The notes under the pieces: generated by a model
What the model was told of the DNA's origin: nothing
Database searches by the model: none
Seen by the model: the letters and a program-made list of their open reading frames with translations, nothing else
Translations under genes and position numbers: made by a program
Shown here: piece after piece, positions 9,856 through 43,165 of the stretch
How the letters are laid out: each line of letters opens with the position of its first letter
How positions within the stretch are numbered: position 1 is the first letter of the stretch
NCBI GenBank assembly: GCA_963825135.1
Contig: CAWGRW010000009.1
Span: forward strand, 352,001 to 416,000
Origin: an uncultured bacterium
GTDB taxonomy: Bacteria > Desulfobacterota_D > UBA1144 > Nemesobacterales > UBA2774
Reading direction: 5' to 3'
DNA length: 64,000 nt

Positions 9856-10777
9856 ATGAGTAATAAAGACCTGATCAAGAGGGCGCGTAAATTCGCTGCG
9901 CCGTTCCGCATCACGAAAGGCGGCAAGTTCCGCCTGAAACACATAGATCCCGGCGACACGCTGCATCTCCAGTCAGAGGACAAGCCCCGCGCCAGGGAAG
10001 TGCTCGCCATGGGAGTCGAGCTGCTCTCCGAGCTTCAGGATATGCTCTACGCCCAGGACCGCTGGTCTCTGCTGATCATCCTGCAGGCAATGGACGCCGC
10101 GGGAAAGGACGGCACCATAAAGCACATCATGTCCGGGGTGAATCCGCAGGGCTGTCAGGTCCATTCCTTCAAGTCGCCTTCGGAGGAAGAGCTCGACCAC
10201 GACTACCTGTGGCGCTGCATGAAGGCTCTGCCGAACAAAGGCGAAATCGGCATATTCAACCGTTCCTATTACGAGGAAACGCTCGTGGTGAGGGTCCATA
10301 AGGAATATCTCGCCAACGAGAAGCTCCCGCCCGAGCTCGTTACACGCAGCATCTGGAAGGAGCGATTCCAGGATATACGCAGCTTCGAGCGTTACCTTAC
10401 GCGGAACGGGGTGGTAATCCGAAAGTTCTACCTGCACGTTTCAAAGGAGGAGCAGGAGACGCCGTTTCATGGAGCGGATCGACAACCCGGAGAAGAACTG
10501 GAAGTTCTCCTCCAGTGACGTGAAAGAGCGTCAGTACTGGGACGATTACATGGAAGCCTTCGAAGACATGATCCGGAACACCGCCACAAAGGAAGCGCCG
10601 TGGTATGTCGTCCCCGCGGACAACAAATGGTTCACTCGTCTTGTGGTCGCGGCGGCTGTAATCGATGCCCTTGCATCTCTAAACCTGCATTATCCGAAGG
10701 TGGACGAGAAAAAACTAGAAGAACTCGCGGTTGCGAAAAATCTATTAGATGGGAGAAGCGGAAATGGTAACCGATGA
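9856..10777 (+). CDS. ppk2: Polyphosphate kinase 2 family protein (class III-like), split by a frameshift near 10455
   Basis: QAMDAAGKDG Walker A, FNRSYYEE, then KNWKFS..D..ER..WDDY and PWYVVPADNKW in the next frame; removing one G restores EEQRRRFMERID. Confidence 0.9.
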
Positions 10778-14648: not shown

Positions 14649-16049
14649 TTATAAATCCACGGGCAGGCAAATGGAAAATTTCGTAAAACCCGGCCTGGAT
14701 TCAAAGCCAATAGTCCCCTTATGCTGATTTACGATAATACGATATGTTATCTCGAGCCCCAGCCCCGAACCCTCGCCGGGCGCCTTGGTAGTAAAAAAAG
14801 GATCAAATATTTTATCCTGTATTTCCTGCGGGATCCCGTTGCCGTTATCGATAATTTCCACGTTCACCGTATCGGACCCGTTGCCGTTCATTCCCGTCCT
14901 TATCGTGATCATCCCCTTCTCGGGAACTGCGTCGATCGCGTTGTCGATCATATTAGTCCATACCTGATTGAGCTCGCCGCCGTATGCGGATATCGCGGGA
15001 ATTTTGTAGTCGAATTCTTTTTTCAGGGTTACGTTCTTTTTTTTAAGTTTGTGGTTCAGGATGATTATAGTATTTTCTATGCCTTCATGCAGATCGATCT
15101 TTCTTTTCTCATGCGCTTTGTCCATATAAGCGTAAGATTTCATTGCCGATACGAGCTCCGAAATCCTGGACGTGCTTTCGACGAGCTCCCTCACGAGCTT
15201 CCTCATTTCAACGTCCCTCGGGAGCCAATTCAAAAAATTCGTGACCTGGTCCGGTTTTAATTTCTCTGAAAAATCACTGAGTATTTTCTTGGTAAATCCG
15301 ACGGAGACAAGTGCCGATGCAAGCTCCCACGGCTCTCCGACGCCCTGCTCTTCCATCCAGCCTGTCAATTCATCTTCAAGCTCGTTTCGCTCTACCGCGT
15401 CGAGCTCCACACCGTCCACGTCTATGACATCTTCAATCGGCTGAAACGGATAACCGCTCTTATCGACTTCGTCTTTGAACATGTAGTATTTCAGTATCTC
15501 GGAGGAGAAGATGTCGAATTCGTATACAGTATTCGCCAGATTCTCCGCCGTCCTCTTTGAGGCCGATGCCGGGTTATTCAATTCATGGGCGAGGCCGGCC
15601 GCCATCGTTCCGAGCGAGGCCAGCTTTTCCCTTTGAAACGAGAGGTGCGTTAATTCAAACATCCTGCTCGACATATTGGACAATATTTTTCCTCTCACCG
15701 TCGAGCAGTTACCCAGCATGTACCAGAAATCATTCTCGTCCACGCTGAATATTCTCATATCCGTAACAGCTATCCCGTTTGCCATATGCGTCATTCCCGA
15801 GAGCAGAGGCACCTCGCCGCCGGACATCCCTTTTGTGAACCGGCCGATCTGGAGCTTTTCTCCCTTGATTATCCTGTAAATTTCGAGTGTGCCCTCGAGA
15901 AAGATATAAAAACGCCTGGCGTGATCCCCCTCGCAAAAAAGATGTTCGCCTTTTTTCAATTCCACAATTACGCCCTTTACGTCCTCGTCCAACTCTTCGT
16001 CGGTAATTTCCGAGAACAGGTCCATATCCTTCAATTCTCTTATAAACAT
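14649..16049 (-). CDS. Cyclic-nucleotide-binding domain sensor histidine kinase
   Basis: N-terminal cNMP fold (LFCEGD..GEVPLL); H-box LAHELNNP, N-box NQVWTNMIDNA, DNGNG, FFTTK, GSGLGL. Confidence 0.9.
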   Translation of the reverse strand: MFIRELKDMDLFSEITDEELDEDVKGVIVELKKGEHLFCEGDHARRFYIFLEGTLEIYRIIKGEKLQIGRFTKGMSGGEVPLLSGMTHMANGIAVTDMRIFSVDENDFWYMLGNCSTVRGKILSNMSSRMFELTHLSFQREKLASLGTMAAGLAHELNNPASASKRTAENLANTVYEFDIFSSEILKYYMFKDEVDKSGYPFQPIEDVIDVDGVELDAVERNELEDELTGWMEEQGVGEPWELASALVSVGFTKKILSDFSEKLKPDQVTNFLNWLPRDVEMRKLVRELVESTSRISELVSAMKSYAYMDKAHEKRKIDLHEGIENTIIILNHKLKKKNVTLKKEFDYKIPAISAYGGELNQVWTNMIDNAIDAVPEKGMITIRTGMNGNGSDTVNVEIIDNGNGIPQEIQDKIFDPFFTTKAPGEGSGLGLEITYRIIVNQHKGTIGFESRPGFTKFSICLPVDL

Positions 16050-16256
16050 TGTATGGCACCCACTATAGAGTTAGATAATCCGGATGTCACAATCGCGCGC
16101 TCCCGACAGGTGAACACTTAAAAGGTATTCTGATATAATATGTCAAGAAAATATAAAAAATCCAAGTCTTTATGTTTTTTTACGAATAAAACTATTGATG
16201 GACGGTACAAAGTCTGTTATAGATATAAGCGTTTACGTTAACCCTGAAACATTCAC

Positions 16257-16330
16257 GTCCCCGTAGCTCAGAAGGATAGAGCGCAGGATTCCTAATCCTG
16301 AGGCCGGAGGTTCGAATCCTCTCGGGGACG
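16257..16330 (+). tRNA. tRNA-Arg (anticodon CCT); CCA not encoded (followed by CAA)
   Basis: Cloverleaf: GTCCCCG/CGGGGAC acceptor, GCTC/GAGC D-stem, CAGGA-TTCCTAA-TCCTG anticodon arm, GGAGG-TTCGAAT-CCTCT T-arm. Confidence 0.97.
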
Positions 16331-17240
16331 CAACCATACAGATCTTCAATCGGTTCTTGCGCCGGAAGCTGGACGCATATCAGTCGGAGAATAGACATTG
16401 TTGCAATTAACCTATGGCGTCCGATTCCTCCTATTCGTCGAAATCGTTCTCTCGGGGACGCAAAACTTTCCCTAAGCATAGTGGCTCTATTGCATTCTTC
16501 CAAAGGCGTCCGGTTCTTGCGCATCGCTCAGAAACCGTTCTCTCGGGGACGCAATAACTCAGTCCGGAGAATCAGTAACATTGTTGCAATTAACCTATGG
16601 CGTCCGATTCCTCCTATTCGTCGAAATCGTTCTCTCGGGGACGCATAACTCAGTCCGGAGAAAGAAGTGAATAACATGGCGTCCGATTTCCTATCTCTGT
16701 ACCATTCAGTCCGGTTAACATGGCAAAGTCGACTAGTCGAAACGTCCGGGACGCATAACTCAGTCCGGAGAATAGAACATTGTTGCAATTAACCTATGGC
16801 GTCCGATTCCTCCATTCGTCGAAATCGTTCTCGGGGACGCATAACTCAGTCGGAATAGAACAGCTGGATCTATTCGTCGAAATCGGGGACGCATAACAGT
16901 CCGGAGAATAGTAACATTGTTGCAATTAACCTATGGCGTCCGATTCCTCCTATTCGTCGAAATCGTTCTCTCGGGGACGCATAACTCAGTCCGAAGAATA
17001 GTAACATTGTTGCAATCAACCTAAGGCGTCCAATTGCTCACTTGTTCGCAATTGTTTCTCGGGGACGCAGCAATTTACCAAAGTACAGTGACCATGTTGC
17101 ATTCTTTCAAAGGCGTCCAATTTAGTTTGGTTTCAGTAGATCATCCCGAGAACATTGGCATTGTTGCAATTAGCATAGGGCGACCGGTTTCTCACTTGCT
17201 CGAAACCGTTACTTGTTCGCAATTGTTTCTCGGGGACGCA
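16321..17240 (+). repeat. Tandem array of ten ~88-92 nt units, each ending in a copy of the tRNA-Arg 3' end (CTCTCGGGGACGCA)
   Basis: GGACGC at 16326 (tRNA), 16371, 16456, 16547, 16639, 16749, 16835, 16887, 16975, 17063, 17234; intact unit = GGACGCA-~43 nt-GGCGTCC-hairpin-GTT-CTCTCGG; some units truncated or noisy. Confidence 0.9.
17123..17210 (+). mobile_element. 88-nt element nested in the hairpin of the last array unit
   Basis: TAGTTTGGTTTCAG...GACC-GGTTTC(TCACTTGCTC)GAAACC-GTT interrupts AATT[GCTC]ACTTGTTCGCAATT. Confidence 0.7.
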
Positions 17241-17298
17241 CACACAATGTATGCTCATAGAGGTTTCCTATGAAACTCTTCCTATTTCCCAGGTAGCC

Positions 17299-17328
17299 TA
17301 GGAGCGGCTTCCAGCCGCAACCTTTTTT
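17299..17328 (+). terminator. REP-like hairpin with T-tract; candidate terminator of the tRNA-array transcript
   Basis: TAGGA-GCGGCT-TCC-AGCCGC-AACC-TTTTTT. Confidence 0.45.
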
Positions 17329-17501
17329 CGAAGTGCTGAGTCAGGGTTGCCAATTGACAATGTCCTCCAATTGTTCATTATCCCGGAATCGTTAATGCAC
17401 ATTATATAAGATGGGGGACGCGGCCGGCAGGATGCACCGATATTTTCAATTTCTTAAAAAATTAGTCTGTCATAATCAAAAAATATCATTATAATTCGGG
17501 G

Positions 17502-19281
17502 ATGATGAAATCCGTTCTACCCATTCTGTTGATACTTCTGTTTGCACTTTCCTGCGACTCCTCAGGTCCCGGAAACTCGGCGAACGTTTTCGGAGACAAT
17601 GTGCCCGATCCGGATGCAGTCGCCGAGGGCCCTGTCGAGAGCGACGTAGTCCTGGACATCGTACTCGGGCTCGCGCGCTCTCAGGATAGTCTCGCCGAGA
17701 GAGTCGATGAGCTCCACGATCCGGGCTCCCCTCATTATCACGATTTCAGGAGCGTTCCGGAGATCGCCGAGGAGTTCGGGGCCGACGATTCGGCAATAAA
17801 GACAGTGCAGGAATACCTGGACGGGCTTGGCATTTCCTTGACCGCCGATGCCACAAAGGGATTTCTTCACGGCCGGGCGACGGCTGCGCAGCTGGATCAG
17901 CTTTTCGACACGGAGCTTTTTTATTACAAGATAGACGAAGGCACTTTTATTGCGCCCTCGATAGCGCCTTCGCTCCCCGCGGCGCTTAACGGACTTGTGA
18001 CGGAGGTTCTGGGTTTAAGCACCGAGCCTTCTCTCTGGGAAATCTCCCCATCCGACAGATTCCGAGACCGCTCTCGGCCCATCCGTTGCAATCGACACGC
18101 CGGGCTCCCCGACAGTCACGGGGACCCGCGAGGGGTGCGCCGACGCCCTCAAGCAAAAAGGCTTCACCCCGAACCAGTTTCGAACGGCTTACGGGATCGA
18201 TGACCTTCACGAGCTCGGTTTCGAAGGGCAGGGCATCACAATGGCCCTCGTCGAGGGAACCAGTTTCGAGCAATCGAATATCGATAAGTTCACATCCTGT
18301 TTCGGAATTTCCAATCCCGTCGTTCCGACGGTCGTCCAGCTGGGAAGCGACGAGCTCAAACCCGACGGAGAACCGTTTCTCGATATTGAAACAGCTCTAA
18401 TGATCGCCCCCAAGCTCTCGGGGCTTTACGTTTTTCAAGAGAAACTCAATTCCCTGGCCGACTGGATCACGCTCTTCTCCGCGCCGCTCAACACCAAGCA
18501 CACGGCGGGGGTTCCCGTGCAGATAATGTCGGGGAGTCTCGGAAACTGCGAGGTCAAATGGGGGTTTGCGGCAATTAGTACGCTGGAATTCGTATTCATG
18601 AACGCGGCAGCTTCAGGGGTGCACGTGTTTATCTCCGCGGGAGACAGCGGCTCGTCCACATGTTTCCACCACGATAAAAAGACCAAGACCAAGTCCGCCG
18701 AGTATCCCGCGTCGTCGCAATACGTCACAGGCGTCGGCGGGACTAACCTTGCGCTCAATGAGGACAACACGATCAAGGGAGAGGGCGTATGGAACGACCA
18801 GGATTTCCCCGCTCCCTACAACAAAAAGTTTGGAGCCGGCGGCGGCGGCAAAAGCATGTTCCTCTCGAGACCTCTCTGGCAGAAGGGAACGAAAATAAAG
18901 GGCTTCAGGAGGACGACGCCCGACGTGGCATTCTTCGCCGATCCTTTTCCGGGCTACGTCATAAACGACTCGCTGAAAGGCTGGTTCGATAACGGGGGCA
19001 CGAGCGCCGCGACGCCGTTTTTCGCCGCGTCCATGGCCCTCGTGCTCCAGGCCGCGAAGGAAAACGACGTAACCCTCGACCTCACTTACGAGCTAATCTA
19101 CAAGCTCGCGAACAGCGACGCCTACGACGGGGTTTTTCAGGACGTGGTCATAGGGAATAACGACCTCTTCGACGTCGGCTGCTGCACTGCGGGACCGCGT
19201 TACGATATGGCAAGCGGGTGGGGATCGCTCAACATCAATTCCCTGGCCGAAGTCTTGATCCCGGGGTTGGGGAACCGATAG
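17502..19281 (+). CDS. S53 (sedolisin/kumamolisin) serine protease lipoprotein with pro-domain, split by a frameshift near 18055
   Basis: LFALSC lipobox, pro-kumamolisin-like region, GFTPNQFRTAYGI in the shifted frame, catalytic EPFLD, SAGDSG, GGTSAATP, Ca-site DVVIGNN..YDMASGWG. Confidence 0.85.
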
Positions 19282-19303
19282 TTTAGGTTATTAAGGTTTT
19301 ATT

Positions 19304-22174
19304 CTAAGACGCATCAAGCAATTCCCGAACCTTTCGAAGAAAGGTCCGGGGCGTGAAAGGCTTCCCGAGGTATCCGAAACCCCGCTCCTGTTCTCCGGAT
19401 TGAAAAATGGACTCCCTCGTGTAACCGGATATATACAGCACCTTCATCTCAGGATGGATATCCAGGAGTTCTTTCACAAGCTCCGGACCGTTCATGCCGG
19501 GCATTACCACGTCGGTTACCAGCAGATGAATCGGATCGGCGTACTTGTCGCAGATTTGAAGCGCTTCGATACAGTCCCGCGATTCCATTGCCTTATAACC
19601 GCTGTCCTTCAGCACCATGCTGAGAATATTCCGGACCGTGCCTTCATCTTCGACAAGGAGCACGGTCTCGCTGCCTCCCAGCGGTTTCTCCGCTGCAGGC
19701 TCTTCTTTCCCGGCGGGTTCGGCGCCCGAATCCGCTCGCGGCAGGTATATCCTGAACGTCGAGCCCTTGCCGACCTCGCTCATGACCGTAATATGTCCCT
19801 TGCTCTGACTCACGATCCCGAAAGTGGTAGCCAGCCCCAGCCCCGTGCCCTGGCCTATGTCCTTGGTCGTGAAGAAGGGCTCGAAGATGCGGGATATGGT
19901 CGGCTCATCCATCCCGCGCCCGGTGTCGCTGGCGCTTATAACGGCATACTCGCCCGGTTTAACCTCATCGCGCCGATCCGTGTTATTCTCGTCCAGATAG
20001 ACGTTCGTCGTGCTTAGAGTAAGCCTGCCCCCCTCCGGCATCGCGTCTCTGGCATTAATAAGGAGGTTCATGATAGCCTGCTCGAGCTGTCCCCTGTCGG
20101 CTTTTACATGCCAGAGCTCCGGACGCAGGTCGGTTATGAACTCTATATTCGCCGGAAGCAGTCTCCCGAACATCTTCCCCAGGTCGGAAATTACATGGTT
20201 CAGGTTCAGAACCGTTAATTGGAAGACCTGTCTGCGTCCGAGGGCCAGGAGCCGATTGGTCAGCGCAGCGGCGCGTTCGCCTGCCTTTTGTATCTCCATG
20301 ATGTTCGCCCGGAGCCCGTCGTCGATGCTCTCCTGCTCCAGTACGAGGTCGCTATAAGACGCTATGACCGTCAGCAGGTTGTTGAAGTCGTGTGCGACCC
20401 CGCCTGCCAGGTTCCCTATCGCCTCCATTTTCTGCACCCTGCGGAGCTGCTCCTCGAGTCTTTTCCTTTCGGTTATGTCCGTAACGAAGCCCTCGATGTA
20501 AGGAGGCCCACCGTCTTCCGGATAAATGCCTCTGCCCTTGTCCCAGACCCATTTCTCCTCTCTCGCTTTAGTAATAATCCTGTAAACCAGGTCGAACTGC
20601 TGGCGCTTTCCGAGTGCGGTCAGGGCATCCTCCCACACGCGTCCCCGGTCGTCAGGGTGTATTAGATTGGAGTACTTGACCTCCCTCGTAACAACAAATT
20701 CTTCAGGGGCGTAGCCTGTTAGCGCGGATACCCCTTCGCTGATGAAATCAAGCGTCCAGTATTTGTCGTATTTGCAGCGGTAAGAGCATCCCGGGAGGTT
20801 GCCGAGGAGCGTCGACAACATCCGCTCGTTCTCCCTGAGGGCTTCTTCGGCCTGCTTACGGTCCGTGATGTCCTCAACGACTCCCATACCGCCGATAACC
20901 GTCCCTCCGGCATCGAGCAGGGGAGAGTAGTGAAGAGACAGCCACAGCTTGACTGGAGATGTCGTAGCTTCATAAACACCTTCGTGATAGGAAGGCGTTC
21001 CTTCAGTAGCGGTTTTCATCGCATTTAAAAAACTCTTGTCCTTTAACGTATTCATATCGAGGCCGATAATCTTTTCAAGTGACGATTGCAGTATGTCGCT
21101 CAGGCGTTCATTACATTGTGTTATCCTCAGTTCCTTATCAAATATAAAAACTCCTACGGGCGACTGGTCGAAGAGGATGCGGTACCGCTCTTCCGAACGC
21201 CTGAGCGCCTCTGCCACCTGAGCCTTTTGTATCGCTCTCACCACCATTTGCGAAACGATCCCCAGCATTTTTAACTCTTCGTCGTCAAACGCGTCTTTCT
21301 TGAGAGAATCTATCTTTATCACGCCGGTTACGCTGCCGTCGGTGCGGATCGGCATCGAGACGATGCTCTTCGTTCCCAATTTCCTCCCGGCGGGTCCGAG
21401 GACGGAATCCAGGTCCGCGTCCTCACAGTACAATATGGGATTTCCGTCGAGAATCGCCTTCCACGTAAAGCCCTTCGGGTACGGGATCCTCCCGGCGCGC
21501 TCGATGAACCATCCGGGATAACCCCTCTCGGCCATCATGACGGCGTCGTTACCCTCAACGAAATAAATCGAAACGAAGTCGCAGCCCTTGATGTTCTTGT
21601 TTATCATCTCAACCGTGACTTCGAGTATGTCACCCACGCGGGCGTACTCCGATATGCTCCTGTTAATTTCGTTGATTATCGTCTCGTGGCTGCTCTTCTT
21701 CGACAGCCGCGCGATGCTCCTGTTGAGCTCATCGACCATGCGCCTGCTCTCCGTGACGTCACGGAAGCTGCACACTATTCCGACAACTTCGCCTTCGGAT
21801 AACCGGGGGTTACAGTGTTGCTCGAAGACCCTCCCGTCCTTGAGCTCGATAACGTCGCTGCCGGGTTGCCCGGGGTTCTCTTCCATTTGCCTCAGTTTCT
21901 TGAGTACCGCATCCGGGTCTTTCACGACCGAAAGGACGAAAGCGAACACGCGGTTGAAATCCCCGCCCTCCAGCTCGGACTCGGGTATCCCCCACATGTC
22001 TATCAGCTTCCTGTTAATGTAGGTTATATTTCCCGACCTTCCTCTGGCGATAATACCGTCCGCTGTCGCCTCCAGTGTCGCGTGGACGAGGGAAGGCGCT
22101 TCCTCGAGATTAGCCTTCGTCAGATCCCGAGGGTCGTCATTGAGCTGTTTTTTTGTTTTAGTTCCGTCTTTCAA
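19304..22174 (-). CDS. Hybrid PAS/GAF/PAS/PAS sensor histidine kinase-receiver (CckA-like)
   Basis: AHDFNNLL H-box, NARDAM, FFTTK, GTGLGL, C-terminal REC (VEDE, TDVVMP, KPF). Confidence 0.9.
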   Translation of the reverse strand: MKDGTKTKKQLNDDPRDLTKANLEEAPSLVHATLEATADGIIARGRSGNITYINRKLIDMWGIPESELEGGDFNRVFAFVLSVVKDPDAVLKKLRQMEENPGQPGSDVIELKDGRVFEQHCNPRLSEGEVVGIVCSFRDVTESRRMVDELNRSIARLSKKSSHETIINEINRSISEYARVGDILEVTVEMINKNIKGCDFVSIYFVEGNDAVMMAERGYPGWFIERAGRIPYPKGFTWKAILDGNPILYCEDADLDSVLGPAGRKLGTKSIVSMPIRTDGSVTGVIKIDSLKKDAFDDEELKMLGIVSQMVVRAIQKAQVAEALRRSEERYRILFDQSPVGVFIFDKELRITQCNERLSDILQSSLEKIIGLDMNTLKDKSFLNAMKTATEGTPSYHEGVYEATTSPVKLWLSLHYSPLLDAGGTVIGGMGVVEDITDRKQAEEALRENERMLSTLLGNLPGCSYRCKYDKYWTLDFISEGVSALTGYAPEEFVVTREVKYSNLIHPDDRGRVWEDALTALGKRQQFDLVYRIITKAREEKWVWDKGRGIYPEDGGPPYIEGFVTDITERKRLEEQLRRVQKMEAIGNLAGGVAHDFNNLLTVIASYSDLVLEQESIDDGLRANIMEIQKAGERAAALTNRLLALGRRQVFQLTVLNLNHVISDLGKMFGRLLPANIEFITDLRPELWHVKADRGQLEQAIMNLLINARDAMPEGGRLTLSTTNVYLDENNTDRRDEVKPGEYAVISASDTGRGMDEPTISRIFEPFFTTKDIGQGTGLGLATTFGIVSQSKGHITVMSEVGKGSTFRIYLPRADSGAEPAGKEEPAAEKPLGGSETVLLVEDEGTVRNILSMVLKDSGYKAMESRDCIEALQICDKYADPIHLLVTDVVMPGMNGPELVKELLDIHPEMKVLYISGYTRESIFQSGEQERGFGYLGKPFTPRTFLRKVRELLDAS

Positions 22175-22531
22175 CCGTAGCCGCCTTTATATGGACCCCG
22201 CACGCATCAAAACCGCTTCCATTTTCCAAATACAGCAAGATGAATTTGCGGGTTATTGTTAACCGTACAAAACAAACGTCGATACATTAAGGATATGATA
22301 TCCGTATCCGCATCCAAACTCATTAAGGACGGAAAAAACGATCGACGCCTTCCGGCAGCGATCAATTATGTGCACACTTTACGGTAAATTGTATCGGGTT
22401 AAACACGAAGCGACCCGGAATTGACGGACTTGACGGACTACGCATGGAATAACCGCAGCACTTATGACGAAACCCTGTAATTATGACGCGCTCGAGATAA
22501 TGAGCATCCTCGAATCAATGGGAACGAGGGG

Positions 22532-25030
22532 CTACGCATTTTTCATCAATGCCGGATTCAGAAATTCGTGCACGCGCGATCTGAATAATTCCACCCTGAA
22601 CGGCTTTGTAATATACTCGTTTCCCGTATTGGTGAGGAACTCCATGGTTTCGCTGCTCGGGTCGCCGGTAATAAAAATCACTTTCCCGGCGAGACCGGGG
22701 TTGGCCGCTTTTACCTCGTTGTAAAAAGAGATCCCGCTCATTTTCGGCATTTTTATGTCGCATATGATAAGGTCGTAGGCGTTGGAGAGGATTTTTTTGA
22801 GGGCTTCCTCTCCGTCACATGCAACGTCCATAGTGAGGTTCTCATCCTCGAGCACCCCTTTAATCAGATCGACTACCAGCTCTTCGTCCTCCACGATAAT
22901 AATCCTCTTCCGGTTTATCTTCCCCACGCTCGGCGATTCGTCTTTCTCGCTGCGGAGGCCCGGAGTCGTAATCCGCGAAATTACCGGCAGCTCCACAATA
23001 ATGGCGGCCCCCGTCCCCTCTCCGTCCCGGTTTTCCGCGCGTATCTCGCCTCCGTGCTCGTTTACGATGCCGTAGGCAACCGCAAGGCCGAGTCCCGTCC
23101 CTTTCCCGGGTTCCTTCGTGGTGAAGAACGGATCGAATATTTTTCCGACGATATCCTGCGGAATCCCCGGGCCGTCGTCTCTGAAAGCGATTTCGATTAC
23201 CCCGTTTTTGATCACTCTCGTGGTCACCGTCAGACGCCCCCGGTCGCTCAGTGCGCTGATCGCCTGCTCGGCATTGAGTATGATGTTCGTAAATACCTGT
23301 TGTATCCGGTTTGAATCGACCATCGTTTTAGGGATCCCCCTGTCCAGGTCCAGCACGACCTCTATGTTCTCGAGCCTGAGCTGGTACTCCCTGAATTCGA
23401 GCGACTGCTCGATGATCGCGTTGATGTCCTCATAGGTCCTGAGAGGCCTGTATTTCCGGGAGAACGACAACAGCTTCTCGATAATCTTCGCGACCCGAAG
23501 CCCGGAAGAGTTGATAATCTCGAGGGGCTTCTTCTCCTTGTCATCGAGCCCGGGCCGCATGAGGAGCCTCTGTGAATAACCGATTATCGGCGTGAGGGGG
23601 TTGTTTATCTCATGCGCAATGCTCGATATCAGCTGCCCGAGAGAAGCGAGCTTCTCCGACTGGACGAGCTTCTCCTGGGCTGACTCGATCTCCTCCAGCA
23701 TCTTCGCTTTCGCTACGGCGATCGCTATCTGATCCCCCATAGCCGAAAGCAGGCGCACTTCGCTTTCGCTGAACTTACGCTCCTTATAGCTCAGGAACCA
23801 GATAACTCCGATAACTTCGTTCCCCTGAAATATCGGTATCCCGAGCAGGCTGTGGTGTCCGAGCTCCCTGCCGGCCTCGCCGATATCCTTGTCTTTCTGC
23901 GCGTCTTCGATGTTTACCACCGCCCCGCTGTCGATGACCTTCCAGGTAAGCCCCTTGGGACTCGGGACTCTTCCCGCCCGATGCATATAAAATTCGGGGA
24001 AGTTCCTGCTCGCCTGGGCCACCGCCTCATTCTTTTCCTTATCCACAAGGTAGATCAAGGCCATGTCCACGTTTTCCATATCCATTATCGTGTCCAGCGC
24101 GACGTTATAAACCTCGTTCAGGTCGAGGAACCTGTGCACGGCCTTCATCAGCGTATTCAGGGCCAGGAGCTCCTCCTCCGTCCTTTTACGCTCCGTAATG
24201 TCCCTCGTGATAATAACGCCCCGTATCTCTCCCGAAGCCGTCGTAAAGGGGTTCCCTATGCATTCGAGCCACTGGTACTCGCCGGATTTGTGAAGGGCCC
24301 TGAACGTAACCCTCTCCGAGGTGCGGTTCATCACCGCGCGCATGAAGACTGTCATGACCATGGGCAGGTCGTCGGGGTGCATGAAATCGAAGGCCCTTTT
24401 GCCCATAAGCTCCGACTCCATATAACCCGTAAGCTCGAAGCAGGACGGATTCACGTACAGTATCCTTCCCCCGGTATCCACCTCGTAAATAAGATCGTAG
24501 CTGTTCTCCACTATGGTCCGGTATTTGTTTTCACTCTCTATGAGCCCCTCTTCCGTTTCCCTGAGCCTGGTAATGTCGCGGAACACGACGACCACTCCCC
24601 TGAAGTCCGTCTCCTCGTACTGTACGGGGGCGATGCTCGCGGAGACGTACCGTGTCGCCCCGTCCCGGGCGACGAGGACCGTGTCCCTCTGCAAACCGAG
24701 CGTCTCTCCCGTTTCAAGGACAGCGCTCGCGGGCTCGAGCGGACTCTCCCGTCGTTTATCGTTGAAGAGACGGAGCACATCCTCGACGGGCCTCCCTATA
24801 GCCTCCTCATATGTCCAGCCCGTCAACTCCTCCGCTTTATAGTTGATCAGAATGGTCCTGCCGTCTTCGCCCGCGATTATCACGCCGTCGCCGATGCTCC
24901 GGAAACATACCGAGAGCTCCTCCATCCGGCGTGAAAGGGCCTTTTCCCTTTCCTCATGGCGGGAAATTCCGAGACGGAGTTCTTCAATCTCGCTGATCAG
25001 CTGTTTCTTCGTCTTACTCTCGTCCTTCAT
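22532..25030 (-). CDS. Hybrid PAS/PAS/GAF sensor histidine kinase-receiver
   Basis: [24 protein letters not shown]-terminal REC (VEDEE, CDIKMP, KPF). Confidence 0.9.
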
Positions 25031-25558
25031 TTCTGCCCTCGGACTCCTGACGAATAACCTGGCGGTTCATGCACGGCCGCATGAGGCATTTAGAATGAAG
25101 CACCCTGAAATTAACTGGCATTGCAGATAGTTACAACCACACATCCCTGCGGGATACCTGCCGCTTCCGGTAAATTCGACCCATAGCCCTTCCGTTTGAA
25201 TTATTAATGCACATCGCCTGAATTGTAAATAGAGAAGGTCAGATATGATTAAGAATAAAGATTAGCGGGGATAATCTCGACCCCGGTCGATACTTCGACC
25301 CGGACGGGACCGAACCCCCTTCACCCGCCCCGGTTACATATTATGCGGACTCCGATCGGGGCGTCAGGGAATGGCGGGTACCGTTAATCCCAATTTGCAG
25401 ATTTGATAACAGAACATGACCGCCGTCAACTCCGCACTCTTAATATTAATTTCATGTTAATCCGGAAATTCAGGGATGACACGGAACGGATATTGATATA
25501 TCCTTCTACTAAAATAATATATTTTTGTTTAGATATTATCGGTAAAGGAGAGCGCAAG

Positions 25559-25783
25559 ATGGCGACTAAAAAAGAAGCAGCCCCCAAAAAGACTGCGGGC
25601 AAAAAGGCGGCTACCCCCAAGACCTCGAGCAAAAAAACTTCATCTGCCAAGGGATCCGTTCAGGACAAAATCGCGAGAGTCGCATACGAGCTTTTTGAAA
25701 AGAGCGGACGCATCCACGGAAGAGACGTCGAGCACTGGCTCGAAGCAGAGGTAATAGTCTTCGGCAAGAAGAAGAAAAAGTAA
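25559..25783 (+). CDS. DUF2934-domain protein with Lys/Ala-rich N-terminus
   Basis: IARVAYELFEKSGRIHGRDVEHWLEAE motif; AAGGAG RBS. Confidence 0.8.
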   Translation: MATKKEAAPKKTAGKKAATPKTSSKKTSSAKGSVQDKIARVAYELFEKSGRIHGRDVEHWLEAEVIVFGKKKKK

Positions 25784-26202
25784 ATACAGCTTCTCCCGCT
25801 GAATGTCAGGCGTTGTTCCCGGATACGTCCATATCCATGTCTGGGAACCCTTACCTGAACTCCCAAACGTTACTGATCCGCCCCCGCTCCGCATCTCGAA
25901 TTCCCGCTCATATTGAAATATTAACAAGAATCACAGATAGCGGCATATGCTGATATAGCCTGTGCCGCTTCATTTTATCCGCTTTTATTAAGCGCGCCCT
26001 TGTACGCTGCAAAGTCCGGCCGCCGGACAGTGATAAATAATCGGCTATTCATCCCTGACTCTCTCCGCTGTACAATATAGCAGCGTCATATGGAATCGGT
26101 CTTCGTCCGCCCGCCCGGCGGCAGGCCGAAATAAGAGAGGAGGATATAAGGGCTTTAACGACCGCTCGCCCCCGCTGCGCGCGGGGAGCCCCCCCGAACA
26201 AC

Positions 26203-28881
26203 ATGAATACAGGAATAAAGCTCACAGAGGAAGAGAAGAGACTTAGAGGGGACAGGGAGAAAAAAACATACTGGAAAAAATGGGGGCCGTACCTGAGCGA
26301 GAGGCAGTGGGGGACCGTCAGGGAGGACTACAGCCCCGGAGGCACCGCGTGGGAATACCTGCCCCACGACCACGCCCGCTCGCGCGCCTACAGGTGGGGA
26401 GAGGACGGCATCGCGGGCATATCCGACAACCATCAGAAGCTCTGTTTCGCGGTCGCGCTCTGGAACGGTCATGACCCTATACTGAAGGAAAGGCTCTTCG
26501 GTCTTACAGGCACCGAGGGCAATCACGGCGAGGACGTAAAGGAATACTACTACTATCTGGACAACACGCCGTCCCACGCCTACATGAAGTGCCTTTACAA
26601 GTACCCGCAGAAGGCCTATCCGTATGACGACCTGGTCGAGGTCAATAAAAATAGGGGCCGCCACGAGCCCGAGTACGAGCTCATCGACACGGGCGTCTTC
26701 GACGAAGACCGATATTTCGACGTATTCGTCGAGTACGCGAAGAAATCGCCCGAGGACATACTCGTCCTCATCACGGTCGCGAACAGGGGGCCCGCCGAGG
26801 CGGCGCTCCACCTGCTCCCCACGCTCTGGTTCAGGAACACGTGGTCGTGGAAGGGAGGGGAAAAACCCTCTCTCCGGTACGCTGAGTCGGAGGAGAAGTT
26901 AAAAGTCATCGAAGCCTCGCACCCGGAGCTCGGCAAGAGGTGGCTCTACTGCGACAACCCCGGCGGGCTTCTCTTTACGGATAACGAAACAAATTTCGAG
27001 AGGGTCTTCGGCTCCCCGAACGAGACGACTTACGTCAAGGACGGCATCAACGACTACATAGTCGGGGGCAGGGAGAGCGCCGTCAACAGCAAGGGCGCGG
27101 GGACGAAGGTGTCGGCCCATTACACGCTCACGATACCCGCCGGAAAATCCGTAACGGTCAAGCTCAGGCTCTCGGACACGATTAATCTCATAGACCCGTT
27201 CGGCAAGCTATACGACGCAGTCTTCGCGAAACGAAAAAAAGAGGCGGACGAGTTTTATAAAAGGATGTGCCCGTACACGCTCCCCGAGGACCTCTCGAAC
27301 ATACAGCGCCAGGCCTTCGCGGGAATGCTGTGGACGAAGCAGTTTTTCTATTACATCGTCGAGGAATGGCTCAACGGCGACCCCCTCTGCCCCCCTCCCC
27401 CCGAATCGAGGAAACAGGGGCGGAACCACAACTGGATTCACGTTTATAACGAGGACATACTCTCAATGCCGGACAAGTGGGAATACCCATGGTTCGCGGC
27501 GTGGGACCTCGCCTTTCACACCGTAAATTACTCCCTCATCGACCCCGACTTCGCGAAGCGCCAGCTGATGCTGCTCACGAGGGAATGGTACATGCACCCG
27601 AACGGCCAGATGCCGGCATACGAATGGGCGTTCGGCGACGTGAACCCGCCCGTACACGCCTGGGCCGCCTGGAGGGTCTACAACATAGAGCACAAGATGT
27701 ACGGCAGGAAGGACATCCATTTCCTGGAAAGGGTCTTCCAAAAACTCCTCCTCAATTTCACCTGGTGGGTCAACAGGAAGGACGCCGAAGGAAAAAACGT
27801 ATTCGAGGGAGGGTTTCTGGGGCTCGACAACATAGGCGTATTCGACAGGAACGCGAAGCTCCCGTCGGGCGTGATACTCGAGCAGGCGGACGGCACGAGC
27901 TGGATGGGGATGTACTGCCTCAACATGCTCGCGATAGCCATAGAGCTGGCGAAGCACAATACGAGCTACGAGGACATAGCGAGCAAGTTCTTCGAGCACT
28001 TCCTCTACATCGCGAGGGCAATAAACTTGCCCGAAAGGGGCCACGACGGCCTCTGGGACGAGGAAGACCAGTTCTACTACGACGTGCTCCACCTGCCTAA
28101 CGGAAATCACCTGCCGCTCAAGGTGCGCTCCATGGTGGGGCTCATTCCGCTCTACGCCATAGAGACTATCGAGCCCGACGTGCTCGAGAAGCTCAGGGGG
28201 TTCAGTCAGAGGATGGAATGGTTCATAGAGAACAGGCCCGACCTCGGGCAGAACGTGGCCTCCATGGTGGAAAGGGGCGTGGGCGAGAGGAGGCTCCTGT
28301 CGATAGTCGATCAGGACAAGCTGAGGCAGGTGCTTAAGAAAATGCTCGACGAGAACGAGTTCCTGAGCCCCTACGGGATACGCTCGGTCTCGAAATTCCA
28401 CAGGGACCACCCTTATGAGTTCCGCGTGGCCGGGTATGACTATACGGTCGCGTACGAGCCCGCGGAATCTACGAGCGGGCTCTTCGGAGGGAATTCCAAC
28501 TGGAGGGGCCCCGTCTGGTACCCGGTCAATTTCCTCCTCATCGAATCGCTCCAGAAGTTCCACTACTACCTCGGGGACAGCTTCAAGGTCGAATGCCCCA
28601 CCGGCTCGGGCAAATATATGACCCTCTGGGAAGTGGCGAAGGAAATATCCCACAGGCTCGTCAGAATATTCAAGAAGGACGCCTCCGGGAGGAGACCCGT
28701 TTACGGGGGCGAAGAGAAATTCCAGACCGACCCCTACTGGAGCTGCTATATTAATTTCTACGAGTATTTCCACGGCGATAACGGCGCCGGCATCGGCGCG
28801 AGCCACCAGACAGGCTGGACGGGACTCGTCGGAAAGCTCATACGCCAGTCGGGCGAATACGGGACAATAGACGAAATTTAA
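26203..28881 (+). CDS. GH63-like glucosidase (MGH1-like glycoside hydrolase)
   Basis: [57 protein letters not shown]. Confidence 0.9.
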
Positions 28882-28898
28882 GAATGGAAATATTTCGC

Positions 28899-28927
28899 TT
28901 GACAAATTAAGACGCATGCTTTATATT
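28899..28927 (+). promoter_or_regulatory. Sigma70-type promoter
   Basis: TTGACA (28899-28904), 17-nt spacer, TATATT (28922-28927). Confidence 0.7.
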
Positions 28928-28933
28928 AATAAC

Positions 28934-29025
28934 TAATATTAAGTAGCGCGCTTAAAGTCATCCTCCATCCTCCTTTAAGAAAAGAGGGAACATTCCGGAA
29001 ACGGATGTTCCCTCTTTTTGTTTTT
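28934..29025 (+). ncRNA. Candidate ~90-nt sRNA with anti-Shine-Dalgarno loop
   Basis: Lies between the promoter and an intrinsic terminator; CTTAAAG/CTTTAAG stem presenting a C-rich loop with CCTCC motifs. Confidence 0.55.
28980..29025 (+). terminator. Intrinsic terminator
   Basis: AAAAGAGGGAACAT(T)CCG-GAAA-CGGATGTTCCCTCTTTT followed by TGTTTTT. Confidence 0.8.
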
Positions 29026-29226
29026 ACAGCAACGCCTGAAGCCCGCAAAGGGTATCTATTCCCTCTCATCCGCTTTCCTCGTCCCCAATCGCTCACGCCG
29101 TATATCTCCAATAAACACCTGATTTGTGAAGATATTTCTCACGAATTTGATATATTCCGATACGCATCATATAATATCCGTAGTTCTGTAGTAAGGAAGT
29201 AATAAGAAGCAGGGGGTTCGTGAACC

Positions 29227-29487
29227 ATGGCAGAGAGCGTCAACGTTAGAATCACGGGAAAGCTCATCAAATTCGTGAAGGACCAGACAGGCCCGGAGGG
29301 AATGTATGAATCGGTAAGCGAGTATGTCCGAGCCCTGATCAGGCAGGATTATGAGCGGCTTGAAGAGCACAGATGGCAACGGCTCTATGGGGAGCTCGAG
29401 CCAGGAATGAACGCCGGAGAGAGCGAATTTATCGAGGTCGGGGCCGAGGACGTAATCGCCAGAAACCGCGGCAATCAAAAATTATGA
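29227..29487 (+). CDS. ParD-like ribbon-helix-helix antitoxin
   Basis: SVNVRI...GMYESVSEYVRALIR pattern; ATGA overlap with toxin. Confidence 0.8.
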   Translation: MAESVNVRITGKLIKFVKDQTGPEGMYESVSEYVRALIRQDYERLEEHRWQRLYGELEPGMNAGESEFIEVGAEDVIARNRGNQKL

Positions 29488-29828
29488 TGCGGTATCGTTT
29501 TTTTCCCGCCGCGGACAGGCGCCAGGACGAAATATGGGATTACACGCTCGAGAAATGGGGCGAGCAGAAGGCAGTTGAATACATACGCGGCATGCACGAC
29601 GCGGTCTCGAAGGCCGCTGAAAATCCGCAGCTGCGGCGGAGGATGGAGCGCAAGGGGTTCGAAAAGGTTTTCTACATACGTTATGAGAAACACCTCATAT
29701 TCTTTCGCCTCCTCTCGGGAGGGGTACTGGGTATAATCAGCATGCTGCACGAGCGGATGGACATTCCCGCCCGCCTGAGAGAAGACATCAAAGAAAACAT
29801 TAAAACTCGAAAACGAGAGAATGAATAA
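29484..29828 (+). CDS. RelE/ParE-family toxin
   Basis: YRFFPAADRRQDEIWDYT...WG..KA..YI, HLIFFR, IISMLHERMD. Confidence 0.85.
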   Translation: MMRYRFFPAADRRQDEIWDYTLEKWGEQKAVEYIRGMHDAVSKAAENPQLRRRMERKGFEKVFYIRYEKHLIFFRLLSGGVLGIISMLHERMDIPARLREDIKENIKTRKRENE

Positions 29829-31052: not shown

Positions 31053-34000
31053 TTATTTTTCTTTCCTCTTTCCCTTGGGCTTCGACTTTTTCGCGATGAA
31101 ATTCTTCAGCTCCGCGAGGTCGGGCGCGAGCAGGTCCTTCACCCTCTCGGTGTTGACCCTGGCCACGATGATGTGGCCGATCTCGGTGTTGACCTCGTCG
31201 TATATCCCCATTGCTTTCATCCCCTGAGCCTGCTTCTGGTTGTCGTCGGTCGGGCTCACGTAGTGTACGGAGACCGCCTTGTACCTGTGTATCAGGAATA
31301 TATGGATGAGAGCCATGAGCCTCTTCTTGCGGAACTTGTCTTCGAAGGTATTCTGGTCCCTGATGGAAACGAAGTTGTTCCCCCAGCGGTCGTGTATGGT
31401 CGTGAAAATCGCGTCGGCCACCTTGTTCCCGGCCTCATCGGATACCGTAAGCTCGAGGAGCTCCGAGCCCGAGGTATGCGGCCGGAGCTTTACGCTCAGG
31501 CGTCCCGGTATGCCGTAGTGCTCCGACCAGAGCTCGAACCAGTCCTCCAGAAGCCTGGGCGGGACCTCGGTTTCGACCAGGTGCTGCACCTGTGTCGAGC
31601 CCTTGCCCATCGCGACCGTGGTCGCCGTACGCCCGGAAGAAGCGGCGAGCGCTCCGTCCAGACGGGGCCCTCCGACGAGCGTCTGGGGGGTCCTGTACGG
31701 GGAGTCGAGCAGCCTCAGCTTCCTCTGGAGCCTCGCGAGTGCGAGCATGCCGTCCTGCTTGAGAGCCGTGGCGAACTCCTCAGCGGCGAGACCGTCTATC
31801 TGGTGGCCGCCGTAGGTGATGAAGTCGAAAACATATCCGAGCTTACCGATTTCCTTCGGGAAGTTCCTCATCTCTTCCTCGCTCATGCCCGTCGTGTCCC
31901 AGTTAAAGGACGGCGACAGGTTGTAGGCGAGCATCTTGTCGGGAAACTCCGCGTGTACGGCTTCCGCGAATTCCCTGGCTTCCTCGTAGTTTGCCGTTTT
32001 GGTTTCCATCCATATTAAATCGGCGTAAGGGGCCACGGCGAGCGACTTCGCTATCGCGTATTCTATGCCGCCCTTTACCTGATAGTAGCCCTCGGGCGTC
32101 CTCGACAGCTCGCAGTCCCAGGGCGCCTCTATGCCCATATGCTTCGCCTTGTCCCTCGCGTGCTGGTAGGAGGCGTGTTTCGCGAATTCGAACCACTCCT
32201 CTATGGTCATCCCGAGGTTCCTGCCCTCTTCTATCGCGAACTCCATCTGCTCGGCGACCGCCTGGTCGTACGTCATAAGCCCGGATTCTACTTCCCAGGT
32301 CTCGACGAACTTGCTGGCCGCGTTCTCGAGCGGCTTGGTGATGCTCCTCTCCTTCCCTTCCTTGAGCGCCTGTATGCTCTTGTCGATAATAGGCGTGAGG
32401 CCCACCTTGTCGAACCACTCGTAGACCTCGTCGTACTCGGCGTCGGAGATATTGTAGAGCATAAAGCCGTTCACGTCCGTGATGCCCTTGTCGTAAAACC
32501 TCTTAAGAATCGCGAGATAACAGTTCTTGTATCCGGGTACGGTCGTGACGGTCGCTCCCAATATGAACGGCTGGTCGCGCTCGTCTCCCCTTCCGTCGAG
32601 GAGGTTTGCGGCCTCGGCGTCCGTACGGGCGACGATGATCCCCGGCACTTTCATAATGTCGAGCTGGAACCTCGCCGCGTTCAACCTCTTTATCTGCTCG
32701 TCAACAGGCACGAGCGCCTTCCCTCCCTGGTGGCCGCATTTCTTCGTGCCGGGCTTCTGGTCCTCTATGTGATACCCCGTCACGCCCGCTTCGACGAACC
32801 TCTTTATGAGGTTCCTGACGTGGGCGTCTCCTCCGTGCCCCGTGTCGGCGTCGGCTATTATGAACGGCCTGTAATCGACCTTGGGAGTGGCCTTCCTCTC
32901 CTTCTCCGACATGCGCGACCTCATGAACTTCTGGTTCCGGTCGGCCGTGAGGAGCGCGCGGACGAGCCCTGCAGCCTCATCGGGCACCTGGCTCAGCGGA
33001 TAGCTCGCGAGGTCCGGGCCCGGGTCTTCCGAGAGAGACCCTTTCGCGGACGTAGCCCATCCGCCGAGATATATCCCTTCTATGCCTATGCGCTTCATCG
33101 TCACTATCTGGCCCGGAGAATAGGGCCCGAACGTCGTTATCTGCTCGCCCCGGGCGAAGAGCTCCCGGAGCCTGGTGTAGAATTCCTCGGAATATTTCCT
33201 TGCCACCGTGTAGTCGTTTTCGATAGTGCCCGCCTGCTGCACGACCTGGCGCGCGGAGTAAAGACGCCTTATGCCCTTGAACCTCGGCCTCGCGAACCAG
33301 TCCTTCATCTCCCTCACCTCCCTTTCGAAGGAGTCGAGCTCGTCCTCGAGCGTGGTGTCGAGCCTCGAGTCGGGGAGGAAGTCGAGGTTCTCGGTGATCC
33401 TCGTGCCGTCCTTTTTGAACGCGTCCATGTACTGCTTTATCCTGATTTTCGCCGTCGAGAGGTCGTGGTTGTTGAGGTTCATGTTGAGGAGGTCGATGTA
33501 CCAGGGCGTCTTGATGTTATCGAGCACGTACGTCTCGACGATCTCCCTCGCTATCGGCAGAGTGGTGGGCTTGGAGTCGTCGTGGACGTCCTTGTCCTTC
33601 GCCTGGAGGAGCTTGTCGTATTCCTCGGCGAGGAGCCTCTCGAAGAGGTCCGAGGTGTATATGTCCCCCGCCTTTACACCGGTCTCGCTATCGTCCTCGG
33701 TCAGTACCGCGCCCTTGTCCACCCATTCCCAGAGAATGCTCAGGCGTATCTCGCCCGTAGCCATGTCTTCCATCAAGTACAGTATGTCGTCGTTGCCGAA
33801 GAAATCGGCCGGCTTGAGCGCCGCCGCCTGAAAACCCTGTCCGAAAGCGTTCCCGTACTGAAGGGCGACCGACATCAGGTTCCTTGCCCCCCTTATAGTC
33901 CGGGGCGCCGGCTCGAGCAGAGTGAGCCCGTCCGCGTCTTCGTCGGTATAGGTGAGCGGCGGGAATTTCCTTCCCATCTGGTTTTCCTGCCCCGCTTCTT

Positions 34001-35633: not shown

Positions 35634-35725
35634 TAATCTGGTTTCAAATACCCTGTCGCTTCGATCAAGGGATTTCTTTGCTTTTAATCATCTCCGACCA
35701 ATTCCTCCGATTTGTCGGAATTGTT
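35634..35725 (+). mobile_element. Solo 92-nt hairpin-GTT element inside a REP-like palindrome
   Basis: TAATCTGGTTTCA...GACC-AATTCC(TCCGATTTGTC)GGAATT-GTT between AAATCCCCCT and CCCCTTTTCCAAAGGGGGA. Confidence 0.65.
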
Positions 35726-35816
35726 CCCCTTTTCCAAAGGGGGAAAGTAATTTTTGATTCCCTCCTTAGAAATAGGAGGGTTAGGGAGGATTTAATTATT
35801 CCTTTAAAAAATAGAC

Positions 35817-35879
35817 CATGGGACAGATGGGACATACGCGCGGAGTATATACCCGGATCATGTGTCCCAATGTCCCATG
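35817..35879. repeat. ~63-bp palindromic element, copy 1 (TGGGACA..TGGGACA-core-TGTCCC..TGTCCCA)
   Basis: Doubled terminal inverted repeats; core GTATATACCCGGAT shared with the copy at 43065. Confidence 0.7.
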
Positions 35880-43064: not shown

Positions 43065-43122
43065 TGGGACAATGGGACAGACGGGCAGGGTATATACCCG
43101 GATATTGTGTCCCGATGTCCCA
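43065..43122. repeat. ~58-bp palindromic element, copy 2
   Basis: TGGGACAATGGGACA...GTATATACCCGGAT...TGTCCCGATGTCCCA. Confidence 0.7.
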
Positions 43123-43165
43123 TGGGAGAATAACAGGGATATTAATGTACACCCCCCACCCTACC

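Follow-up and report, generated by a model that had tools for sequence, protein, structure and literature searches.

The repeats behind the tyrT tRNA genes of Escherichia coli, known since 1978, have long stood alone, as a poorly understood case of a locus in which a tRNA 3' end is rebuilt in tandem. Three units of 178 nt follow tyrV in E. coli K-12, and the final 19 nt of tRNA-Tyr recur at the end of each unit; the small RNA annotated there, RttR (171 nt; the Rfam family RtT is presumably RF00391), begins 8 nt downstream of tyrV, and its end coincides exactly with the first repeated CCA. According to PMC4986893, tRNA processing frees the RtT RNAs from the transcripts of tRNA operons, and a link of these RNAs to the stringent response has been described. 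An array of the same general design is described here in a 64,000-nt stretch of DNA (hereinafter, the window) from an uncultured bacterium of the Desulfobacterota_D (GenBank assembly GCA_963825135.1, contig CAWGRW010000009.1, positions 352,001 to 416,000), where a tRNA-Arg(CCT) gene is followed by tandem modules of about 88 nt. An earlier note, made from the letters of this stretch, had already likened the locus to tyrT, and the comparison proves apt when the tyrV-RttR design is checked on the K-12 sequence.

The likeness consists in same-strand tandem units that start at the last base of the tRNA and end in its 3' terminus, which is repeated over 19 nt in E. coli and over 13 nt here, with seven modules carrying the exact 13-mer. 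Each E. coli unit also contains a 10-nt exact complement to the tRNA-end copy, and the 5' segment of the present modules is partly complementary to theirs. A poorly defined function is common to both. The two arrays nevertheless show no similarity in sequence or at the level of covariance models (the RtT model is not matched). The units are 88 nt long in 2-10 copies rather than 178 nt in three copies, the tRNA is Arg(CCT) without an encoded CCA rather than Tyr, and the modules are heterogeneous (A, B and C types, with hairpin variants). Furthermore, the last tRNA-end copy is followed by a palindrome here and by a unit-start-like sequence in E. coli, and the host belongs to an uncultured lineage distant from E. 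coli. Spacer-derived sRNAs of tRNA operons, such as the sRNA sponge 3'ETS-leuZ, are also comparable as functional RNAs excised from the trailer of a tRNA precursor by tRNA processing. 3'ETS-leuZ is a single-copy, Hfq-dependent RNA that does not regenerate the tRNA end.

The reading tentatively favoured below, which falls somewhat short of being probable, is that the array is an RtT-like trailer that is transcribed together with tRNA-Arg(CCT), cleaved into hairpin RNAs of about 88 nt at each tRNA-end copy and resized by unequal recombination.

Anatomy of the Array

The tRNA-Arg(CCT) gene (16257-16330, plus strand; 69.8 bits with the Rfam tRNA model, with the ARAGORN boundary at 16331) is the only tRNA gene that ARAGORN detects in the window. 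The gene does not encode a CCA end; after the discriminator G comes CA. The terminal 13 nt of the tRNA region (TCTCGGGGACGCA, 16320-16332, plus strand; hereinafter E) span the 3' strands of the T-stem and of the acceptor stem, the discriminator and the CA. Between 16320 and 17240, the plus strand contains eight exact copies of E, namely, the tRNA's own and those of seven modules, as well as one more array copy with two mismatches. Across the window, there are 11 matches to E with at most two mismatches, compared with 2.96 expected, a number that none of 100 shuffled sequences reaches.

The hexamer GGACGC is found at all 11 positions listed in the earlier note (16326, 16371, 16456, 16547, 16639, 16749, 16835, 16887, 16975, 17063 and 17234), with successive intervals of 45, 85, 91, 92, 110, 86, 52, 88, 88 and 171 nt. 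The ten units announced there thus correspond to ten GGACGC-bounded intervals up to position 17240, but only six of these are intact (85-92 nt), the others being a 45-nt partial, a 110-nt degenerate, a 52-nt truncated and a 171-nt composite one. The proposed unit layout, GGACGCA followed by 32-45 nt, GGCGTCC, a hairpin and GTTCTCTCGG, is borne out. An intact module comprises a 5' part of 38-45 nt, GGCGTCC, a 7-bp hairpin with a loop of 10-12 nt, GTTC and E, with a body of about 75 nt in addition to the 13-nt tRNA-end copy. The 5' segment contains a small hairpin in which G-U pairs are tolerated, and the loop of the 7-bp hairpin is conserved in having TC at both ends (TC....TC). The subtypes A and B/C distinguished in the note are real and can be aligned over their whole length, so that they form one family. 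A subtype-A 28-mer occurs five times with at most three mismatches, four of these being exact, with none expected. The intervals and the copies of E, together with the related loci described in the next section, confirm that a genuine tandem array follows tRNA-Arg(CCT).

All modules are on the plus strand. The first one (u0, 16333-16377) is a 45-nt partial B-type module with a 5' hairpin half, CGGTTCTTGCGC, and an E that is reduced to GGACGCA. Next come u1 (16378-16462; A-type, 85 nt), u2 (16463-16553; B-type, 91 nt, with the hairpin CGGTTCT..AGAAACCG) and u3 (16554-16645; A-type, 92 nt). The degenerate A-type u4 (16646-16755; 110 nt) has lost the hairpin, and its E has shrunk to TCCGGGACGCA; u5 (16756-16841) is an A-type module of 86 nt, and u6 (16842-16893) is an A-type module with an internal deletion that leaves 52 nt and with two mismatches in E. 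The A-type u7 (16894-16981; 88 nt) scores 111.7 bits in the module covariance model, and u8 (16982-17069; 88 nt) joins an A-type 5' part to the hairpin variant CAATTGC..GCAATTG. The array ends with u9 (17070-17240), a 171-nt composite that consists, in this order, of a C-type 5' part without its own E, a second module with the hairpin CGGTTTC..GAAACCG, half a hairpin and E. The palindrome CACACAATGTATG (17241-17253, plus strand) comes directly after this last E.

Distribution among Related Genomes

A collection of species-representative genomes was scanned for E preceded by the left context of either the tRNA or the modules, a pattern that requires the exact tRNA end and hence leaves arrays behind other 3' ends outside its reach. 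The scan returned 108 loci, compared with about 139 chance matches estimated beforehand; 28 of the 108 cover only about 300 nt on each side. Of these loci, 25 are tRNA 3' ends, namely, 23 whole tRNA-Arg genes (18 with the anticodon CCT and five other isoacceptors) and two 3' fragments that start in the anticodon stem (loci L007 and L030). Modules lie directly behind tRNA-Arg(CCT) in three of the 18 loci (L041, L013 and L096), with two or three modules each, and the tRNAs of these loci are 99-100% identical to that of the window. L041 has modules of 89 and 92 nt, and its flanks are 95.6% (upstream) and 90.8% (downstream) identical to those of the window. L013 has a 172-nt composite and an 89-nt module, with 89.8% identity upstream and different DNA downstream, where the one open reading frame (ORF) examined encodes a family-20 glycosyltransferase. 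In L096, the modules are 87 and 88 nt long, and the identity of the flanks to the window is about 72%. With a covariance model based on 11 modules, a further module is found at the very start of L016, a Dadabacteria contig (56.2 bits, E = 7.6e-11). Thus, the array is not peculiar to a single assembly and is also present in related uncultured bacteria.

The other 15 tRNA-Arg(CCT) loci lack modules. The block upstream of the tRNA is present without modules in L105, L040, L084 and L063, and L104 and L066 have a near-identical tRNA that is not followed by modules. Searches of phage and plasmid collections with two modules (blastn, mode 'distant') gave no match. No Rfam family matched at E<=10 in window positions 15500-18000 apart from the tRNA itself or in L096, L041 and L013, and only the tRNA was found in the whole window at the gathering score. 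A full-text search of the literature found no relevant described tRNA-linked arrays; the multicopy sequences described in papers on Geobacter metallireducens (PMC2700814) and Pelobacter (PMC3543383) are of other kinds. In L108, from a candidate phylum, a degenerate second tRNA 3' end, GGTTTGAATCCTGTCGAGGACGC, is found about 25-50 nt after a tRNA-Arg(GCG).

History of the Array

The earlier note had proposed comparing orthologous loci for gain, loss and polarity of units. This comparison shows that the number of modules varies from 2 to 10 and that no polarity is visible. The order of a C/B-type module followed by an A-type module is found in both L041 and L096, so that this pair is common to species whose flanks are only about 72% identical. 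In the window, the pair occurs twice, as u0+u1 (with u0 damaged) and u2+u3, with a repeat period of 183 nt. The module pair of L041 matches u2+u3 at 90% over 199 nt by BLAST, and the extra modules of the window, compared with L041, flank this shared pair on both sides. The A-type modules of the window are 89-94% identical among themselves, 88-93% identical to that of L041 and 77-81% identical to that of L096. The composite u9 stands at the end of the array in the window and is 86% identical to the composite with which the array of L013 begins. The shared pair, the order of units across genomes and these identities show that the array is old, vertically inherited and unpolarised, that it changes through block duplication and loss at any position, and that the two-module block and the A type have been amplified in the window genome. 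The changes in size would proceed via unequal recombination or slippage between modules.

Signals around the Array

A promoter-like block that is conserved upstream of the tRNA (16192-16246, plus strand) contains TGGACG, a 17-nt spacer and GATATA at 16199-16227, about 30 nt before the tRNA gene. Equivalent blocks are present in L041, L013 and L096, and the BLAST matches of L040, L084, L063 and L096 to the window begin at 16192. The promoter scan flags the block in L041 and L096 (TGGACA-17-GATATT); in the window, it flagged another site instead (16111-16139). The scan detects neither promoter-like nor terminator-like sites within the array and no terminator-like site between the tRNA and the array. 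Downstream of the array in the window, it finds a terminator-like hairpin, GCGGCTTCCAGCCGC, with a T run (17304-17330, plus strand). In all four arrays, the last E is followed by a palindrome of the form CACACA(A/T)(T/A)GT(G/A)TG, which scores as terminator-like in L096 only. A hairpin with a run of seven Ts after the array of L041 can be read from the sequence but was not flagged by the scan.

Solitary Hairpins, Conservation and Covariation

A scan of the window for the design of the 7-bp hairpin yields nine matches, compared with 0.09 expected. Two of these are solitary, intergenic and provided with matching flanks, both having CGAC before and TTCCCC after the hairpin and both lacking E: CAATTCC-TCCGATTTGTC-GGAATTG (35699-35723, plus strand), which is also recovered by the module covariance model (24.4 bits, E = 0.002), and CTGCTTC-TCGCTCGCTC-GAAGCAG (43230-43253, plus strand). 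A further match, on the minus strand within a gene, is probably due to chance. Close to each of the solitary hairpins, another repeat (GGGACAnnTGGGACA ... TATATACCCGGAT) is present (35810-35860 and 43066-43125, plus strand), so that these intergenic regions share more than one repeat.

The hairpin alignment comprises 16 copies (14 distinct), namely, 13 modules from five genomes (the window contributing seven), the module of L016 and the two solitary hairpins. Five of the seven pairs of the stem vary on both sides (18 cells), and pairing is retained in 94.9% of the hairpin cells compared with 81.6% in shuffles, none of 500 of which reaches the observed value; controls in which the stem was slid give at most 50.5%. 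A smaller set of hairpins agrees with this result. In the small 5' hairpin, A-U pairs change to G-U in six cells with pairing retained, a tolerance that fits only an RNA of the plus strand. Identity between genomes is 97.5% for the E region and 93.2% for GGCGTCC, compared with 54-80% for the other segments. The modules of the window and L041 match at 90%, whereas the 138 nt that follow the window array have no BLAST match to L041 at E<=1e-5. As judged from these alignments, the modules are selectively conserved and their hairpin covaries.

With respect to the overall fold, three C-type modules can adopt a cloverleaf-like structure closed by a 7-bp stem (UUCCCGA/UCGGGGA) that involves the tRNA-end copy. 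RNAalifold preferred pairing of GGACGC with a downstream GCGTCC over this tRNA-like closing stem, in columns that hardly vary. Among the few variants, GGCGACC and GGCATCC (the latter in L016, affecting one pair) would break the GGCGTCC/GGACGC pairing and GGTGTCC would keep it.

A Proposed Co-transcribed and Processed Trailer

The earlier note had offered two readings, serial site-specific insertion of a tiny element and a co-transcribed array that is processed into small RNAs. The second of these is favoured here because the array shares the strand of the tRNA, a conserved promoter-like block precedes them and the scan finds no terminator-like site between them, and also because related species inherit the array, one hairpin covaries and the architecture matches that of tyrV-RttR. 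In this reading, the transcription unit of tRNA-Arg(CCT) would have a 3' trailer made up of the ~88-nt modules. The conserved promoter would drive the tRNA and the array together, and the tRNA 3'-end machinery would cleave at every copy of the tRNA end; RNase Z is the enzyme expected for a precursor without CCA. The products would be hairpin RNAs of about 88 nt, similar to RttR from the tyrT-tyrV operon. Such RNAs could act as a sponge or decoy for a factor with affinity for the hairpin or for the tRNA end, or else as a buffer of tRNA processing.

Several observations weigh against a trailer of this kind. The covariation and the exact conservation of E are equally expected for mobility at the DNA level. 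Single modules do not fold better than shuffled sequences (z from -2.14 to +0.99), with only one of nine modules being beaten by three or fewer of 200 shuffles, and the A-type modules, those that have been amplified, are without a stable predicted fold. Pairing of the 5' segment with E, which would give a tRNA-like shape, beats the shuffles in none of ten modules. No Rfam family, RtT and tRNA included, matches the array even at E<=10. The scan flags a terminator after the array in the window and, weakly, in L096, but none in L013 or L041. Finally, the number of modules (2-10) is not conserved, so that their dosage does not seem to be under tight selection.

Alternative Explanations

The array could also be a functionless tandem duplication of the tRNA 3' end with its trailer, homogenised by unequal crossing-over and gene conversion, with any transcripts being degraded. 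The free variation of the copy number between species (2-10), the lack of a thermodynamic signal for the fold and the tolerance of degenerate, truncated and fused modules (u0, u4, u6 and u9) are all compatible with this scenario, as is the mosaic of 5' parts and hairpin types, which looks like a product of recombination. However, compensatory changes at five of the seven hairpin pairs are not expected of neutral DNA, and the pair of a C/B-type and an A-type module persists across flank divergence that leaves about 72% identity. Across genomes with such flanks, and in the Dadabacteria contig as well, E and GGCGTCC remain 93-98% identical, compared with 54-66% for the neighbouring segments. In addition, copying of E together with a trailer would be expected to leave a module start after the last E, which is not what is found. 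A functionless duplication is considered unlikely.

Rather unlikely is the possibility that the modules are miniature non-autonomous mobile elements, inserted serially at the tRNA 3' end by a recombinase encoded elsewhere, which could be a tyrosine integrase with E as the core site or, alternatively, a single-strand enzyme of the HUH/Y1 type that recognises hairpins (IS200/IS605 or REP-RAYT). Each intact module carries an exact E, and all four arrays are bounded by E on both sides, with the distinct conserved palindrome beyond; given these boundaries, the first module must either have carried an E when it arrived or have duplicated a 13-nt target. The two solitary hairpins, which have the design of the module hairpin and lie in intergenic regions elsewhere in the window, point in the same direction. 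So do the covarying stem and conserved loop, which are typical of single-strand hairpins recognised by proteins, and the C-type junction TCGGGGA-9 nt-TTCCCGA, which is an inverted repeat across the joint. Moreover, the same tRNA serves for integration elsewhere, with a tyrosine integrase adjoining it in L092 and a tRNA fragment located by integrase and defence genes in L007. The general form, a direct repeat of the tRNA 3' part (13 nt, exact) that bounds each insert, is that of integrase attachment (att) repeats.

The serial-insertion reading of the earlier note nevertheless finds no support, because the 64-kb window contains no recombinase or transposase, the modules have the composition of 75+13 nt, two-module blocks occur in duplicate with a 183-nt period, and extra modules lie on both sides of the pair shared with L041. 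The position of the composite differs as well, being distal in the window and proximal in L013, and hence the array has no polarity. Genuine integrase remnants at this tRNA (L007 and L030) are repeats of about 48 nt that extend from the anticodon stem, not 13 nt. At 88 bp, the modules are too short to form a double-stranded circle, the solitary hairpins are devoid of E, and the searches of phage and plasmid collections revealed no similar DNA. In contrast to islands bounded by att repeats, the inserts are gene-free, about 75 nt long and of lengths that are not multiples of three, and neither a tyrosine nor a serine recombinase is encoded in the 64 kb. The note had stated that no integrase, transposase or cas gene lies next to the array; this holds for the entire window, in which known defence genes were not detected either.

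Two classical islands were encountered at the same tRNA in other lineages. In L007 (2222-6280), a 3' tRNA fragment of about 48 nt is accompanied by a tyrosine integrase, an AbiU2-like HEPN protein and an MmeI-like methylase. In L092 (2-271), a tyrosine integrase adjoins the tRNA.

An unlikely proposal is that the modules represent a new class of mini-elements that depend on a tRNA end. The hairpin together with the exact 13-nt end could be an insertion or processing signal for a hairpin-binding enzyme, by means of which the modules would add themselves behind tRNA-Arg(CCT), or could give rise to RNAs that mimic the tRNA end and titrate some factor acting on this tRNA. Solitary hairpins in other parts of the genome would then belong to the same system.

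It is improbable that the modules are decayed tRNA-Arg pseudogenes that originate from tandem duplication of the whole gene. The spacing from E to E, about 88 nt, is close to the length of a tRNA plus a short spacer, the start of the C-type module (TTCCCGAAGTACAG) resembles GTCCCCGTAGCTCAG in the tRNA, and the cloverleaf-like fold with its 7-bp closing stem in three C-type modules would be in line with such an origin. Alignment of the module body with the tRNA body gives a nominal p<0.05 in four of 11 cases, but these p-values are uncorrected and the remaining seven range from 0.07 to 0.93 in the shuffle test, so that homology is unconvincing. Furthermore, the closing stem does not beat shuffles, the Rfam tRNA model matches no module even at E<=10, and ARAGORN finds one tRNA per locus.

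That the repeat number is an assembly artefact is most improbable: independent assemblies of four other species contain a similar array behind the same tRNA, and the modules differ in type and order, which collapse or expansion would not create, even though the L016 contig breaks inside the array and broken reading frames (a peptidase gene interrupted at different places in the window and in L041, and a split PPK2 gene) imply that indel errors are possible and that some of the 1-2-nt differences between modules may be errors.

Other Repeat Systems

Repetitive extragenic palindromes (REPs) and their clusters (BIMEs) are short intergenic hairpins with covarying stems that sometimes form tandem clusters and are transcribed with neighbouring genes. 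The two solitary hairpins of one design within 64 kb resemble these elements, but all hairpins of the present locus have one orientation, no RAYT is encoded in the window, and a link to a tRNA end is foreign to REPs. In type III toxin-antitoxin systems, tandem RNA repeats are processed into single units; the ToxI-like repeats consist of units of about 36 nt, after which come a terminator and the gene of an endoribonuclease toxin. In the window, in contrast, the next gene encodes a pro-kumamolisin-like peptidase, and PADLOC reports no defence system. A CRISPR array was rejected given that the sequences between the repeats are homologous to one another and there is no cas gene. The ends of integron attC sites have the consensus RYYYAAC ... 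GTTRRRY; an integron or attC array was likewise rejected because the window has no integrase and the module end is GTTCTCT rather than GTTRRRY.

Other Features of the Window and Related Loci

The upstream neighbour of the array is a cNMP-binding histidine kinase gene on the minus strand. Downstream, there is a pro-kumamolisin-like peptidase (S8/S53-like) in two ORFs and then further sensor kinases. The ORFs that run across the array (16192-16524 and 16528-16788 on the minus strand and 17034-17273 on the plus strand) have no Pfam or PADLOC match. Among the neighbours, PADLOC gives one weak match to an effector model, in residues 17-135 of a sensor kinase (18.5 bits, E = 0.00018), which was discounted.

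The peptidase gene is split in the window (17502-18203 and 18241-19281, plus strand), and its counterpart in L041 (1938-3410, minus strand) is broken elsewhere, a pattern suggestive of indel errors in the two assemblies or of parallel decay. A polyphosphate kinase of the PPK2 family is likewise encoded in two overlapping ORFs (9856-10518 and 10469-10777, plus strand) with an apparent frameshift.

A small-RNA-like element located at 28898-29025 (plus strand) consists of a promoter-like TTGACA..TATATT, a stretch of about 60 nt that includes CATCCTCCATCCTCCTTT, and a hairpin with a T run. It matches no Rfam family at the gathering score. In L104, L016 and L030, this element is found, with 83-84% identity, directly after the tRNA-Arg, the module or the tRNA fragment. 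About 11.6 kb (17241-28890) separate it from the array in the window, a block that contains, besides the peptidase gene, genes for two large sensor kinases, one DUF2934 protein and one GH63-like protein. L041 shares at least the initial 2 kb of this block, the block is absent from L104, L016 and L030, and L013 has other DNA in its place. The notion that these 11.6 kb are an island bounded by E was rejected since there is no E-like sequence near 28.9 kb. Just past the small-RNA-like element, an ORF at 29200-29828 (plus strand) encodes a ParE-like toxin (Pfam ParE_toxin, E = 1.8e-10) and is preceded by a short ORF, the two probably forming a ParDE pair.

Another unusual gene of the window is an ORF of 1415 amino acids (31053-35300, minus strand) in which a malate synthase A-like region (residues 36-594) is followed by isocitrate lyase from residue 664, so that both enzymes of the glyoxylate shunt are contained in a single protein. 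Related genes are located near the L016 and L030 loci.

Implications

For the annotation of genomes, this locus is a warning that arrays of this kind behind tRNA genes are neither CRISPRs nor scars of islands. With its 88-nt module, one hairpin and natural variants of 2-10 copies, it also provides a compact and testable model. In a distant lineage and with unrelated sequence, the same design as in the E. coli RtT repeats is encountered, that is, modules that rebuild the tRNA 3' end. This shared design, along with the exact copy of the end and the covarying hairpin, suggests that trailers that rebuild the tRNA end have evolved more than once and that they have a purpose, which could concern the processing of tRNA 3' ends or small RNAs derived from tRNA precursors.

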